10,084 nt of DNA from a virus: UHGV virus genome UHGV-0216281, one strand, 5' to 3'. How positions within the stretch are numbered: position 1 is the stretch's first letter; each line of letters opens with the position of its first letter. A program made the translations under genes and the position numbers. Shown one piece after another: positions 1 to 7,603 of the stretch. The notes beneath the pieces are model-generated. The model did no database searches and was not told the DNA's origin. It saw only the letters and a list, made by a program, of their open reading frames with translations.

Positions 1-108
1 ACCCCCTTTTGATTTCTTGTTTGACACTTGCAGTTGCCAGACCGCAAGGTGTTTTAACAAATCAAAAGGGGTTTGAATAACTGGCTCAAAGCTGAAAGCT
101 TTCCGGAA

Positions 109-131
109 CCCCCAGCCTAGCTGGGGGTTTT
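109..131 (+). terminator. Intrinsic terminator-like hairpin on the plus strand (cccccagc-cta-gctggggg followed by tttt)
   Basis: 8-bp GC-rich perfect stem at 109-116/120-127 with a 3-nt loop, followed by TTTT at 128-131. No plus-strand ORF lies upstream inside the window, so the transcript it would terminate is unknown. Confidence 0.4.
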
Positions 132-3253: not shown

Positions 3254-3576
3254 ACTTTCAGGCCCCTCTCATGTAACCAGTGGGCTGCACGCAGCCTGGC
3301 GTTTTCCTCACCGACAAGCAGTGAGCGGATAATCCCGACCGCCTCGCTGTCGTCGTCCTTCACCGCGGTATGAAGCGTGATCCCCCGGGCCACACCACGC
3401 TTTATCGTGATGACGCCTTTTTTCTCCAGTGCGCGAAGATGCTCCACCGCTGCATTCACCGAACGGTATCCCAGCATGGTTGCCACTTCCTGATTGGTTG
3501 GCGGGAAGCCACGCTCTTTCTGATAAGAAATCAGCATATCCAGCACCTGCTGCTGGCATTGAGTTAACGTCGTCAT
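3250..3576 (-). CDS. LexA N-terminal DNA-binding-domain protein lacking the S24 peptidase domain
   Basis: 108 aa. Residues 3-70 (LTQCQQQVLDMLISYQKERGFPPTNQEVATMLGYRSVNAAVEHLRALEKKGVITIKRGVARGITL) align closely with the E. coli LexA N-terminus ([65 protein letters not shown]). No Ser/Lys dyad region follows. ATGA overlaps occur on both sides. Confidence 0.8.
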   Translation of the reverse strand: MTTLTQCQQQVLDMLISYQKERGFPPTNQEVATMLGYRSVNAAVEHLRALEKKGVITIKRGVARGITLHTAVKDDDSEAVGIIRSLLVGEENARLRAAHWLHERGLKV

Positions 3577-4226
3577 GCCGCCATCTCCCTGACCAGCTTT
3601 TCCGCCTGCAGGCGAACCTGCGCCAGAAACGCCTCACCACATGCCTCAAGTTCATCGCGCCCGATGTAGCTGATTGCCGGTCCCTTCCAGGTCTTGTCGA
3701 AAACAGCAATAGCACCAGCGAAGAAAGCGCCTGTCGGCACCTGCTTCTCATCCTTCGGGATAAACCAGGCAGGCAGTTCAAAACCAATACGCCCGCGAAT
3801 AAAAGCAATATGATCTGCATCTTCCGGCCACCACACTTCGCTGGTGGCAGCTTTGATCAGGAAAACATAGCGCCCGCCCTTATCACGCATGGCACTGGCA
3901 TGCTTCATGATGTAACGCATGCCGGTGATGTATTGCCCCTCATGCTGACTGGCGCGGCTGTATGGGGGATTTCCAAAGGCAGCACCTTTAAGCTCCGCAA
4001 GGCGTTCTGACCAGTCATGCGCCAGCGCGTTGTCTTCCGCCGTGTAATACGCAGCACATTTGGCGTTATCACCGTCAGTGAACAGATCCAGAACAAACGG
4101 ACCAAACAGGGTGTTAATTCCCCAGAAAATGTTGTCCGGCGTGCGCCACTGATCGCCCACTTCCTTCAGTTCATGGGCTGGTTTGTTCCGCAGTTCCACC
4201 AGCTCCTGGCAATATTTATTACTCAT
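3573..4226 (-). CDS. Phage Dam-family DNA N6-adenine methyltransferase
   Basis: Contains the motif IV sequence GNPPYS (NPPY). The ORF track starts at a GTG at 4259 (228 aa), but the ATG at 4226 overlaps the upstream stop as TAATG, which suggests a coupled start giving a 217-aa product. It occupies the position of the yfdM-like methylase in CPS-53-type prophages. Confidence 0.85.
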   Translation of the reverse strand: MSNKYCQELVELRNKPAHELKEVGDQWRTPDNIFWGINTLFGPFVLDLFTDGDNAKCAAYYTAEDNALAHDWSERLAELKGAAFGNPPYSRASQHEGQYITGMRYIMKHASAMRDKGGRYVFLIKAATSEVWWPEDADHIAFIRGRIGFELPAWFIPKDEKQVPTGAFFAGAIAVFDKTWKGPAISYIGRDELEACGEAFLAQVRLQAEKLVREMAA

Positions 4227-4714
4227 TAAGCCCCCACGTAATTCCCTGACAGATACCACTCTTCACCTGATGCAGCCCGCTTACTGCTTTTCCGTAAACA
4301 CCGTTCACGACGCGCCAGAAAATTGTTTCGTTCTGGCTGGGAGTAGCTTTCACGGAATGCCGCCATCCACACCGTTGCAGCACGACGGTATAAGCCCCTG
4401 GACTCCAGTTCTTCCGCCTGGCGGGTCAGGCACAAAATCACCCGGGGATCGTTAGTGCCGACATAGAAATTGCGCACAGGTCTGGTTTCACGAACTGGTT
4501 GTGGTTCCGGCTCCTGCGCTCTCTCAGTCAGGCGTGGGAAATGTCTGCGTGTATCTCCTTCACAACGGTGAGCCACACGCCCACTCTGACGTAACTTGCT
4601 TGCTGACTGCAGAACGCGCTGCCGTGAGTAACCTGCAAAAGCATCCGCAATGTCTCCGGAAGTACAGCCCGGATGGGCTTCAATGAATTTCTGAACGTCA
4701 TTCAAAAGACTCAT
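4226..4714 (-). CDS. YfdN-like protein, possibly PerC-family (C-terminal EELESRGLYRRAATVWMAAF motif)
   Basis: The ORF track gives a GTG at 4720; the ATG at 4714 with a GGGGG RBS is the more likely start (162 aa). It is coupled to the replication gene stop. The PerC-like C-terminal motif is recalled from memory, so the family assignment is tentative. Confidence 0.55.
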   Translation of the reverse strand: MSLLNDVQKFIEAHPGCTSGDIADAFAGYSRQRVLQSASKLRQSGRVAHRCEGDTRRHFPRLTERAQEPEPQPVRETRPVRNFYVGTNDPRVILCLTRQAEELESRGLYRRAATVWMAAFRESYSQPERNNFLARRERCLRKSSKRAASGEEWYLSGNYVGA

Positions 4715-4716
4715 GA

Positions 4717-5658
4717 TCACCCCCTGAATCCTGCCGGGATCTGGCTGTAGTCCACGTTGTCGTAACTGGCTTTGAAGTACGGGTCTTCGCGTTTTTCGGT
4801 GTACGTGCTGACGGACGGCGATAAGCGCAGGGAAAGCTCATCCCATTTTTCCCGCAACTTCGACGGGCTGAGCACGTTACGGCACCAGAACGGATCGCGG
4901 CTGACGCGGCTGTACATCTCGCAGATTTGTTTGTGAGTACGACCATCCTGCACACACATCAGGCGAATTTCGTTTGCCCATGCTGTCCAGTTAGGTTCTT
5001 TGGGACGAACCACCTCGCCGTCACATTCGGCGGCCTGCTCGTACAGGGCGATGATTTTTTTCCAGAGCCACTGTGCGCAGGTCAAATCATCCTGCGTCCC
5101 CCACTGGCGCTTTTTAGGGCTGAATACAACCGCATCAGGATGGCGAGTTAAAAAATCCTGTTCATCCGTCTGCGTGTCCGGTTGCGAAGCGTCCGGACGA
5201 GAAGGTTTTTTATCTGACGGATCATGTTTTGATTTTACTGACGGATCCCCGCCAGATTCTGACGGGTGAAAACCCGCTTTTTTGCCAGATTTCGACGCAT
5301 CAAATTTTGACGGGTCAGATTTTGATGCGTCAGATTTTGACGGGTCAGAATCTGACAGTTGAGAAAATGCCGCTGCCTGAAGCTTCGCAACGTTAAGCTG
5401 ATAAACATTCGACGCATTGCGGTTACCCTGGCGACGCGCCTTACGCGTTAACCAGCCTTCTGCTTCCAGCCGTGCGATAGCCGTTCTGACGGTACTCATC
5501 CCCGCGCCAATCTGACGGGCAATAGTTTCAATTGATGGCCAGCACACACCTTCGTCATTACTGAAATCAGCCAGGCGGGCCATAATTGCCACGCTGGATA
5601 ATTTCATGCCTGACGCAGCGCAACCATCCCATACATAGCCGGTTAATTTAGTGCTCAT
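4717..5658 (-). CDS. Replication initiation protein, lambda O-like (N-terminal winged-helix/HTH, repeat linker, C-terminal domain)
   Basis: 313 aa. The N-terminus SSVAIMARLADFSNDEGVCWPSIETIARQIGAGMSTVRTAIARLEAEGWLTR is typical of phage and plasmid replication initiator HTH domains. The central low-complexity linker SDPSKSDASKSDPSKFDASKS is encoded by DNA tandem repeats. It sits in the O position after cro and cII. Confidence 0.8.
   Translation of the reverse strand: MSTKLTGYVWDGCAASGMKLSSVAIMARLADFSNDEGVCWPSIETIARQIGAGMSTVRTAIARLEAEGWLTRKARRQGNRNASNVYQLNVAKLQAAAFSQLSDSDPSKSDASKSDPSKFDASKSGKKAGFHPSESGGDPSVKSKHDPSDKKPSRPDASQPDTQTDEQDFLTRHPDAVVFSPKKRQWGTQDDLTCAQWLWKKIIALYEQAAECDGEVVRPKEPNWTAWANEIRLMCVQDGRTHKQICEMYSRVSRDPFWCRNVLSPSKLREKWDELSLRLSPSVSTYTEKREDPYFKASYDNVDYSQIPAGFRG
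5254..5358. repeat. Tandem 15-bp direct repeats (consensus AGATTTTGACGGGTC) inside the O-like gene; candidate origin iterons
   Basis: Units at 5254-5268, 5287-5301, 5302-5316, 5317-5331 and 5332-5346 (the last is a perfect match to the consensus), with a partial unit at 5347-5358 and a degenerate copy at 5231-5247. Four units are contiguous. This parallels the lambda ori iterons embedded in the O gene. Confidence 0.55.
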
Positions 5659-5827
5659 GACCGACCTCTATTTCCCTGAATTTACGACGAAACTGTTCGA
5701 GCGGGCTAAAGCACTCATGCTCATAGCCTTCACGGAGGTAGATAACCCGTTGTGTTTCCGGCTCCCAACGAATGACTCTGACGGGCACTCCGTAGTGATC
5801 TTTGAACCAGCGGTTAACTTGTCGCAA
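5648..5827 (-). CDS. Small hypothetical protein (about 60 aa, TTG start) in the alternative frame
   Basis: The frame is open from 5869; a TTG at 5827 is preceded by GGAGA with a 7-nt spacer. The product [59 protein letters not shown] has a globular-looking composition. It overlaps the 112-aa ORF by about 160 nt and the O start by 11 nt. Confidence 0.3.
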
Positions 5828-6006
5828 AGGACTGTCTCCTTCTGCCGGTTGAAATCCCCCACAGCCCACTCAGCAAAGCTGTGGGTTACAATTTCCCTGT
5901 CACCTGGTACATTTACTGCATAGCAATACTCCACCTTCGCTTTTCCACCCGGTACAGGAAGCGCAATCAGTTGCGAGCGACGGTAGTGTGTTGTTAAACT
6001 GTTCAT
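5668..6006 (-). CDS. Hypothetical protein (112-aa ORF), translationally coupled to the cII-like gene
   Basis: The ATG at 6006 overlaps the upstream stop in an ATGA junction, with a GGAGA RBS 9 nt upstream. The N-terminal half looks protein-like; the C-terminal half is Ser-rich and low in complexity. It conflicts with the 5648..5827 frame. Confidence 0.4.
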
Positions 6007-6560
6007 GCGTTAGTTTCTCCACAACCAGAAGCAATCGACGCCACGACGCCCGGAGCTGCACACTCGCGGGCGTCATTACTTTCTGAAACGCAAAAAATTT
6101 TGTAGACAAGTGCTGCATGCTCCTGCAGCTTCGAAATTGAGAGGTACAGCTCGTCGTTAATTGCTGTCTTCTCATGCGGTTCCACTACACCGTCTTCGAT
6201 TGCCGAACGAATCTGTTTTGAATAACTGCCGATCTGTTCAATGACTTCCAGTAAACGCTGGTTAATATCGGCATTGTCCACATCCTCGACGTCAGGAAGA
6301 GACACAAAGACGCCATTTGCAGACTGCGCCACAGCGTCAGCAATGAAGTGAGTGCCACCAGCACGTTGTAAAATCATTGCCCATCCCAGCGGGAAAATCT
6401 GATCGCCATCGGCACGAAGGCGGTTAAATAATGCGTTCTCTGTTACATCCAGCCACTCAGCAGCTTCAGCGTAACCCCCCGGCAACGCCGCGATAGTTTT
6501 TCTGACAGCTTTCACGTACCACTCAGGCTGTTTTTCCACTTTCCAGTGATGATTACCCAC
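6003..6560 (-). CDS. cII-position regulator (YdaT/CP76-like)
   Basis: 185 aa from a GTG start with a perfect AGGAGG RBS and 6-nt spacer. It overlaps the cro-like stop by 8 nt. It sits directly after cro, as ydaT follows ydaS in the Rac prophage. The family assignment rests on position and recollection. Confidence 0.55.
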
Positions 6561-6813
6561 GGCTTACCTCCTGTTCCTGTGGTTTAAACCCATTCTGGTT
6601 TTGGCTAGATTGAAAACGTGCCGGATAAAGAATCTGCATTTCGCTGATTTCACCCTTAAAAAAATTGGCCAGACGTTCTGCAAGATCGATAGATGGAATT
6701 TGTTCCAGTCTTTCAATACGACTCAGCGTCGCTGGATTGACCTGAACGCCAGCAGCAACATGCTGCAAAGTAAATCCGTGCGCCTTACGCACATTCCGTA
6801 ATGGTGATTGCAT
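6553..6813 (-). CDS. cro: Cro-like HTH regulator (YdaS-like)
   Basis: 86 aa, transcribed divergently from the repressor gene. HTH segment GFTLQHVAAGVQVNPATLSRIERL. GGAGG RBS with a short 4-nt spacer. Confidence 0.75.
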   Translation of the reverse strand: MQSPLRNVRKAHGFTLQHVAAGVQVNPATLSRIERLEQIPSIDLAERLANFFKGEISEMQILYPARFQSSQNQNGFKPQEQEVSRG

Positions 6814-6910: not shown

Positions 6911-7603
6911 ATGAACATAGGAAACCGAGTCAGACAACTTCGCCAGGCGAAGAACATGAAAATCGCCGATCTCGCTGAAGCAATAGGAGTGGATGCGGCG
7001 AATATCTCACGCCTGGAAACAGGTAAGCAGAAACAATTCACTGAACAAGCCCTGAGTAATATTGCCAGGAGCTTAGGTGTTGATATTGCTGATCTCTTTA
7101 CCTCAGACTTCAAAAGTAATACTGTATGTAAAAACAGTATTAGTGAGGATGTTGCGCAGGTGAAGGATGTATTCCGTATTGAAATGCTGGATGTCAGTGC
7201 CAGTGCGGGAAATGGCCTTATCCAGGGCGGTGATGTCATTGATGTGATTCATGCCATTGAATACAGAACTGATAATGCTGTATCGATGTTTGGCGGACGG
7301 CCAGCCAATCACATTAAAGTTATCAACGTTCGTGGGGACAGTATGTGTCCAACCATTGAGCCAGGAGATCTCATCTTCGTTGATGTCAGTATCAATCAGT
7401 TTGATGGAGATGGTATCTATGTATTTGGTTTTGATGATAAAATTTATGTCAAACGACTGCAAATGATACCTGACAAACTACTGGTGATTTCTGATAACCA
7501 GATTTACCGTGAATGGGGAATTACCAGCGAAAATGAACACCGGTTTATGGTCTTTGGAAAGGTCTTAATCAGCCAGTCACAAACCCTTAAGCGACACAAT
7601 TAA
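6911..7603 (+). CDS. cI: cI-type prophage repressor (N-terminal HTH, C-terminal S24 LexA-like autopeptidase)
   Basis: 230 aa. The N-terminal HTH is IADLAEAIGVDAANISRLETGK. The C-terminus carries the S24 catalytic Ser motif GDSMCPT and the Lys in YVKRL. No Shine-Dalgarno precedes the ATG, consistent with a leaderless message. Confidence 0.9.
   Translation: MNIGNRVRQLRQAKNMKIADLAEAIGVDAANISRLETGKQKQFTEQALSNIARSLGVDIADLFTSDFKSNTVCKNSISEDVAQVKDVFRIEMLDVSASAGNGLIQGGDVIDVIHAIEYRTDNAVSMFGGRPANHIKVINVRGDSMCPTIEPGDLIFVDVSINQFDGDGIYVFGFDDKIYVKRLQMIPDKLLVISDNQIYREWGITSENEHRFMVFGKVLISQSQTLKRHN

Follow-up and report, generated by a model that had tools for sequence, protein, structure and literature searches.

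A probable replication origin within the linker-coding part of an O-like initiator gene in a lambdoid prophage

A probable iteron array in the initiator gene

The 10,084-nucleotide (nt) stretch of virus genome UHGV-0216281 analysed here (the window) constitutes the early-right part of a lambdoid prophage, the region being read on the minus strand. At 4717–5658 (minus) the list of open reading frames (ORFs) and their translations gives a 'replication initiation O-like' initiator gene of 313 amino acids (aa). It is likely that positions 5203–5357, inside the linker-coding part of this gene, are the replication origin of this SfII/SfIV/CPS-53-like prophage. As judged by computation, the element would join the lambda-type class, in which the initiator gene itself contains the origin. 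A sequence-only reading of the window had proposed an ori-lambda-like origin here, and every available computational test (codon constraint, co-inheritance with the DNA-binding domain, a C-terminal domain of the lambda O type) speaks in favor of that proposal.

In the proposed mechanism, dimers of the N-terminal winged-helix domain would bind six 11-base-pair (bp) cores of the form TCA(A/G)A(A/T)TCTGA. Five cores at 15-bp phasing and one 33 bp further on would be assembled into an O-some-like nucleoprotein complex, which would destabilise an adjacent ~65% A+T stretch made of two 24-bp-spaced GATC boxes. The lambda-O-like C-terminal domain would then bring in the replicative helicase, presumably by way of host DnaB–DnaC. 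From sequence comparison we infer that the initiator binds the cores, that the GATC boxes unwind, how the helicase is loaded and that the segment acts as an origin.

The array consists of five head-to-tail 15-bp units at 5283–5357 (minus), delimited by repeat finding and a motif scan. In the sense of the gene each unit reads GAC-nnn-TCA-AAA-TCT and encodes the pentapeptide D-x-S-K-S (aa ~101–125). At the DNA level the unit comprises the 11-bp palindromic core and a free spacer of 3–4 nt, that is, a C and a free triplet after each core. Core 1 (TCAGATTCTGA, 5345–5355, minus) is a perfect palindrome, the cores at 5330–5340, 5315–5325 and 5300–5310 (minus) each carry one mismatch, and a degenerate core with two mismatches can be read from the sequence at 5285–5295 (minus). 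Beyond an A-tract spacer (GGCAAAAAAGCGGGTTTTCAC in sense; 5263–5282, minus) lies a sixth, isolated iteron (TCAGAATCTGG, 5252–5262, minus), 33 bp centre-to-centre from unit 5. The six sites together (5252–5357) fall at aa 101–136, between the DNA-binding and C-terminal domains of the protein. The palindrome, TCAGA-W-TCTGA, has a single central base, which suits a dimeric binder of duplex DNA and makes an RNA hairpin impossible.

Tandem Repeats Finder reports 5286–5349 with a period of 15, 4.3 copies and 81% matches, in addition to a period of 30. With up to 3 mismatches allowed, the 15-mer AGATTTTGACGGGTC has five plus-strand matches (at 5254, 5287, 5302, 5317 and 5332, one of them exact) spanning 5254–5346; the chance expectation is 0.24, and the both-strand total of 6 matches was reached in 0 of 200 shuffles. 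With at most one mismatch, the core TCARAWTCTGA occurs at 5252–5262, 5300–5310, 5315–5325, 5330–5340 and 5345–5355 and nowhere else in the 10-kb window, where 0.74 occurrences are expected; the observed count was likewise reached in 0 of 200 shuffles. This cluster is also the sole one in the complete 41.5-kb genome of Shigella phage SfII. The 15-bp tandem repeats noted in the sequence-only reading are thus real and form the only such cluster in the window, with five units and a sixth copy. Their placement in the linker-coding part of the O-like gene stands too, once the strand is corrected, as both the gene and the sense of the repeats are on the minus strand. The description of the repeats as direct and not internally symmetric was incorrect, since the units carry imperfect or perfect 11-bp palindromes. 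Two additional copies of CCGTCAGA in the winged-helix coding part (5485–5518) were excluded from the element; codons there vary freely in homologues.

The GATC boxes

In the sense of the gene the array is followed by the A-tract spacer, the sixth core, and two GATC-led boxes. Box 1 (GATCCGTCAGTAAAATCAAAACAT, 5224–5247, minus) contains a GATC at 5244–5247, the iteron half-site TCAG and an A-rich run. Box 2 (GATCCGTCAGATAAAAAACCT, 5203–5223, minus) contains the second GATC at 5220–5223. The boxes share the form GATCC(G/A)TCAG plus an A-run and lie 24 bp apart. Together they span 45 nt (5203–5247) with ~64% A+T in the window and a mean of 66% in homologues, compared to 46% in the part of the gene that encodes the N-terminal domain (N-domain). 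A conserved A+T-rich stretch therefore does follow the array, and the sequence-only reading, which had seen no obvious one, needs qualification. The stretch is modest, its A+T content being much weaker than that of the corresponding region of lambda. Similar boxes are found in other phages: phiP27 has 2.5 such 24-bp boxes and Klebsiella phage Kp4866-6 has 2.8 copies of GATCCGTCATTA.

We regard 5203–5247 as a candidate unwinding region. Control by Dam and SeqA may also act on it, given the two GATC sites and how often an adenine methylase gene lies nearby. Among 54 diverged homologous loci (described below), at least one GATC is present in all 54 and two at 24-bp spacing in 44, and in 32 an adenine methyltransferase gene lies no more than 3 kb downstream of the initiator. 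These downstream methyltransferases are either of the Dam type (PF05869) or MT-A70-like with a DPPW motif (loci L006, L013, L017, L026, L045, L052 and others).

Selection at the DNA level

When proteins were searched with the N-domain, nearly all matches were truncated fragments and fusions of at most 174 aa. These could not be used for codon analysis, so a genome scan took their place. One genome per bacterial species was queried with N-domain peptide patterns only. This gave 78 loci from Shigella, Pantoea, Providencia, Proteus, Yersinia, Serratia, Rahnella, Enterobacter, Kluyvera and other genera, of which 54 diverged loci were left after dereplication and compared codon by codon. Five loci (L030, L037, L055, L067 and L079) are enterobacterial-type copies of the module in assemblies labelled Chryseobacterium, Vagococcus, Martelella and Pseudomonas lundensis, and probably reflect contamination or mislabelling. 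As for the protein search, none of the 120 best N-domain matches exceeds 174 aa, most are labelled partial, many end in or near the repeats, and one protein (P0035) reads the repeats in another frame (QNLTRQNLMHQNLTR). It seems that the array breaks assemblies or gene calls.

Synonymous sites in the N-domain have reached saturation, the most frequent codon typically having a share of 0.3–0.6 and every synonymous codon being in use. In the repeats and the hinge after them, over the next ~65 bp, codon choice is by comparison nearly invariant. Mean pairwise synonymous codon identity is 0.89 in the hinge versus 0.40 in the N-domain (Mann–Whitney p = 4e-8). The Ser codon of the unit is TCA in 256 of 277 cases and TCG in the other 21, with none of the four remaining Ser codons observed, and Lys is AAA in 172 of 172. 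Wherever the consensus residue is kept in the hinge, Phe is always TTT, Val GTA, Ser TCA and Asp GAT. Asp is encoded by GAC in 81% of the units, but by GAT in 100% of the cases in which a GATC results. In box 1 Asp is GAT in 54 of 54 loci, while Val GTA and Ser TCA are used in every locus that has those residues. The sixth iteron is nearly invariant as (T/C)CAGAATCTGG. Conversely, none of the three positions of the second codon in a pentad is constrained, and the A-tract spacer (5263–5282) is poorly conserved except for TTT and the A-runs. Amino acid changes in the unit (Ser to Pro, Ala or Thr; Lys to Glu or Asn) keep the nucleotides of the core (NCA, RAW). Position weights from 263 units in the 54 loci amount to 1.0–2.0 bits per position in the core and 0.4–0.7 bits in the spacer.

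Free third-codon variation had been named beforehand as the outcome that would speak against a role for the DNA motif; what was found is the opposite, codons that hardly vary. The comparison indicates that the motif is conserved beyond coding needs, by purifying selection at the DNA level. The pattern is that of a duplex-DNA binding site with a spacer, and is unlike what constraint on a protein, an RNA or an overlapping frame would be predicted to leave. In the Stx phages, synonymous iteron mutations abolish replication of a P27 plasmid (PMC7466680).

Several features of the array would also be compatible with a peptide repeat (D-x-S-K-S) that slippage produced in a flexible linker and that has no role as DNA. 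Its period is divisible by three, the copy number changes by whole units, and the linker is predicted to be coil, although in a low-confidence model. However, synonymous positions are almost invariant across genera while an entire second codon is free, core nucleotides survive amino acid changes, and the core is palindromic. Slippage or gene conversion can explain similarity within an array but not identity across Shigella, Providencia, Yersinia and Pantoea. This explanation was already disfavoured and we consider it very improbable.

The cause of the conservation could also be sought in an RNA element or in an overlapping or alternative-frame peptide. On the plus strand a terminator-like hairpin with a 5-bp stem, a 4-nt loop and T6 is indeed present at 5263–5284, as the sequence-only reading had pointed out, and it might act as an antisense terminator; moreover, two other frames are open through the array. 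The stem is intact in only 1 of the 54 loci, so the hairpin is probably incidental, and it was set aside as a functional element or intrinsic terminator. The 11-nt palindrome with its 1-nt centre cannot fold as a hairpin, and no Rfam family matches at the repeat element. The open frames follow from the composition of the repeats. The ATG of the alternative minus-strand ORF (5415–5417) overlaps the codon for Asn84; as roughly half of the loci use AAC for this residue, the start is not conserved. An RNA or alternative-frame origin of the conservation thus has very little to recommend it.

The initiator protein

In the initiator, a long linker connects a winged-helix domain at the N-terminus to a lambda-O-like domain at the C-terminus; the protein matches PHROG 391 'replication initiation O-like' with an E value of 1e-135. 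Its gene is 98.9% identical at the nucleotide level to gene 41 of Shigella phages SfII and SfIV, and a Shigella flexneri chromosome encodes a 100% identical protein. The DNA-binding domain (aa ~1–95) is encoded at 5374–5658 (minus). It matches Pfam HTH_36 at aa 23–70 (E value 4e-11) as well as GntR and MarR types, and is the presumed reader of the iterons; no match to Phage_rep_O was found for it in the Pfam search. A sequence search of the PDB returned only generic MarR/PaaX winged helices, and DnaT, implied by a 'primosomal protein I' annotation, was not matched. An AlphaFold2 model of low confidence (predicted local distance difference test score 50), used for the helix/coil outline, has helices at 2–99 and the linker as coil.

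The C-terminal domain (aa ~165–277) is encoded at 4828–5166 (minus), as delimited by BLASTP against lambda O. In that comparison (E value 7e-26) a conserved block at aa 172–277 is aligned to residues 177–270 of lambda O. The alignment begins only at aa 70, with identity concentrated in the C-terminal domain, and the N-domain is not alignable. On this evidence the C-terminal domain is judged homologous to that of lambda O, which in lambda contacts P.

Fusion proteins of 138 aa in which the first ~79–80 residues of the initiator are joined to RusA occur in many E. coli genomes (P0047–P0059, P0066). L070 and L076 have this N-terminal segment fused instead to an ORF of 455 aa that looks terminase-like by eye. 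These fusions suggest that deletions have occurred repeatedly and share one endpoint in the N-domain.

The N-domain and repeats as a module

The same core accompanies N-domains down to 60–66% identity, and in more distant phages the repeats change with the N-domain. Klebsiella phage Kp4866-6, whose N-domain is 59% identical, has repeats of TCAAAATTTGA with a 15-bp period. The 'O' protein of phi24B carries an HTH_36 N-domain that is 43% identical over aa 25–94, and its array is made of 24-bp GGGCAGGAGCTGCCC units (GGGCAG..CTGCCC). In mEp460_4F5, where the N-domain is unrelated, there are 23-bp repeats followed by an A-rich run, and in lambda, where it is not alignable, 18-bp iterons. The arrays of all four phages and of the window lie at aa ~100–147. 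Because the repeats match the type of N-domain across these phages, the two appear to be inherited jointly as one specificity unit, as is the case for lambda O and ori-lambda.

The exchange of such a unit is seen in mEp460_4F5, which shares only 4717–5216 of the window (the C-terminal half of the gene, at 96% nucleotide identity), so that a different N-domain with its own repeats has been swapped as a unit onto the same C-terminal domain. The mosaic junction, at ~5216, falls where the conserved element ends. Across the 54 loci, the window's type of N-domain and repeats is combined with at least three different kinds of C-terminal domain. In addition, the final 76 nt of the gene (4717–4792) are 97–99% common to many otherwise different phages (SfV, mEp460, cdtI, Stx2a and Stx2c phages), and this sharing appears to mark a mosaic joint at the 3' end of the gene.

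Both the junction at ~5216 and the variety of C-terminal domains could be taken to mean that the block is conserved merely as a recombination linker, or by recent horizontal spread between phages, without selection on specific sites. Within the block, however, invariant positions alternate with freely varying triplets and the copy number ranges from 3 to 9, while recent transfer would keep spacers and flanks equally. A favored crossover point is, moreover, compatible with an origin, as in lambda O. We therefore consider conservation by recombination alone highly unlikely.

Distribution and variation

A 301-bp segment containing the element is found in 2060 of 5426 complete E. coli genomes, and the initiator family occurs in many other Enterobacterales. 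E. coli variants carry clean insertions of +15 and +30 bp, corresponding to one or two units, and across genera the number of units varies from 3 to 9. SfIV, which has been isolated and propagated as a phage (PMC3851460), carries an identical array. In E. coli K-12 the segment lies in the CPS-53/KpLE1 remnant (yfdO region; L086, 2068–2775), adjoining yfdN and yfdM. Here the array and the GATC boxes are almost unchanged, and the initiator is without its first ~78 codons. Remnants of the K-12 type could titrate the initiator of incoming related phages.

Genomic context

The initiator gene follows cro and cII in the pR operon. On the minus strand, cro (6553–6813), a cII-like gene (6003–6560) and a small gene with no assigned identity (5668–6006) precede it, with cI at 6911–7603 on the plus strand. 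The next gene downstream, of the PerC family, is at 4226–4720 (minus). Its GTG start overlaps the TGA stop of the initiator gene (GTGA, 4717–4720), which suggests translational coupling. The PerC-like protein is extended at its N-terminus by ~100 aa, which show a weak MarR-type match; the protein was considered as a hidden analogue of P and set aside, as it has no similarity to lambda P. It is followed by a phage Dam-type N6-adenine methyltransferase (3573–4259, minus; Pfam PF05869, E value 1e-45), and then by a small repressor-like gene, RusA, a KilA-N regulator, a DUF968/HNH protein and Q. No promoter-like sites were detected in 4600–6000.

Three further features lie away from the initiator gene. 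A full-length match to Rfam RF01405 (STnc490 Hfq-binding small RNA; 143.9 bits) is located at 6–129 (minus), just downstream of the Q antiterminator gene. Short tandem repeats are found inside the cI coding region (TGATGTCAT, 3.3 copies, 7231–7260) and at the 5' end of the KilA-N gene (TCAATAACCA, 2.3 copies, 2813–2834).

Proposed origin function and helicase loading

Some observations weigh against assigning the origin to 5203–5357. The A+T-rich part is short (~45 bp) and only ~65% A+T, weaker than that of lambda. DnaA boxes are not enriched: TTWTNCACA with at most one mismatch occurs 27 times in the window against 19.7 expected, and not at all inside 5203–5357. The 15-bp phasing, ~1.4 helical turns, sets neighboring dimers on nearly opposite faces of the helix, while lambda iterons are spaced at 20–24 bp, so a lambda-like wrapped O-some is not guaranteed. 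No origin is annotated at this place in any record among the sequence matches. Finally, the loading step is left unexplained by the module and by SfII, neither of which has a gene for a helicase, loader or primase. No P, DnaC, DnaB or primase gene is present in the window, none of the three functions is annotated in the complete SfII genome, and a P- or DnaC-like gene was found within 3 kb at only 3 of the 54 loci, with the helicase queries being partial. Given this absence, the helicase would presumably be supplied by the host DnaB–DnaC system.

A more speculative version of the origin, which we hold to be possible but rather doubtful, is gated by methylation and works without a phage loader. 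The GATC pair, acted upon by Dam and SeqA and often by the phage's own adenine methylase, would time firing, and an initiator filament on the six 15-bp-packed sites would load host DnaB directly through the C-terminal domain, without P. If true, this would constitute a mode of lambdoid replication so far undescribed.

The array might instead be bound by the initiator mainly for regulation or copy control (autorepression, handcuffing, or titration and exclusion of related phages), with the origin elsewhere. Plasmid iterons serve initiation and control alike. Ectopic copies of the lambda origin arrest the cognate phage (PMC4488673), defective prophages such as CPS-53 of K-12 retain the array though the first ~78 codons of the initiator are gone, and the weakness of the A+T-rich part fits such a role as well. 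On the other hand, the complete SfII genome has no second cluster of the motif, the position and polarity of the element (iterons, then an A-rich stretch, in the initiator gene) are those of ori-lambda, and the adjoining conserved GATC/A-rich boxes are hard to explain by a mere operator. A mainly regulatory array is therefore unlikely, and an origin at 5203–5357 remains the probable interpretation.

The result would be a likely origin and an iteron consensus for a very common, uncharacterised initiator family that reaches from CPS-53/KpLE1 of K-12 and the serotype-converting Shigella phages SfII and SfIV to many Enterobacterales. In a limited literature search no description of this iteron family was found; the SfIV genome paper is silent on an origin, and the papers on the Eru replication regions do not treat origins. 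A full-text search with the core sequences gave only unrelated primer matches. With a mapped candidate origin and a clear putative binding motif, the mechanism of replication with O only becomes directly testable. Potential uses include the annotation of prophage origins, the construction of mini-replicons, and the prediction of incompatibility or exclusion at the level of replication between resident defective prophages and incoming phages.

Comparison with known replication origins

The closest model is ori-lambda, which consists of four 18-bp iterons, an A+T-rich region and an inverted repeat inside gene O. In both systems the origin, or candidate origin, is in the initiator gene right after the part encoding the DNA-binding domain (aa 117–145 in lambda, 101–125 in the window), the iterons are dyad-symmetric around an A-rich centre (lambda TCCCTCAAAACGAGGGA), and an A-rich stretch lies on the promoter-distal side of the iterons. 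The C-terminal domains are homologous, and both elements occur in the pR operon after cro and cII. The window differs in its N-domain (HTH_36 rather than Phage_rep_O) and in having six sites rather than four, with an 11-bp core at 15-bp head-to-tail phasing as opposed to 18 bp at 20–24 bp. Its A+T-rich part is weaker and is composed of two GATC-led boxes, and no P gene follows the initiator.

The boxes recall origins controlled by Dam and SeqA, such as E. coli oriC with its 13-mers (GATCTnTTnTTTT) and P1 oriR with its GATC heptamers. As a lead, the systems have in common repeated GATC-led A/T-rich boxes beside initiator-binding sites (putative ones in the window) and Dam+ enterobacterial hosts, with a phage Dam gene nearby in the present case. 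However, the window has only two GATC sites and no DnaA boxes.

In gene content the module resembles the 'O-only' lambdoid modules described for phage LLS and found in 34 of 314 lambdoid phages, whose replication, according to the authors of that survey, is not understood, none of the 34 having been studied (PMC12315714). Both have a single O homologue without a helicase or loader. That paper describes no origin, and the likeness to LLS is one of gene content.

Origins made of repeats within the initiator gene are established for lambda and inferred for gene 18 of P22 and gene 18 of phage L (PMC8022706), and the Stx phages 933W and P27 have six-iteron origins (PMC7466680). As in the family described here, each type of initiator has its own in-gene repeats, and the number of repeats varies between relatives. 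In those phages a helicase (P22, L) or the loader P (Stx phages, lambda) adjoins the initiator, unlike in the window, and the repeats differ in sequence and spacing, for instance the 11-mer TGTCCAACGGA of L. The 'O' of phi24B and the HTH_36 proteins of the Eru5, Eru6, Eru8, Eru11 and Eru13 replication regions (PMC8951638) belong to the same N-domain family. phi24B also has a palindromic repeat array, at aa 98–118; there the units are 24 bp long, the C-terminal domain is another one, and a helicase gene is next. Iterons inside the initiator gene are a textbook principle, so their location as such will not surprise a specialist. From the comparisons made here, the particular features of this element are its putative HTH_36 reader domain, the 11-bp palindromic core with an unusually tight 15-bp phasing, a GATC-box region in place of a plain A+T tract, and an initiator that appears to act with no partner loader.

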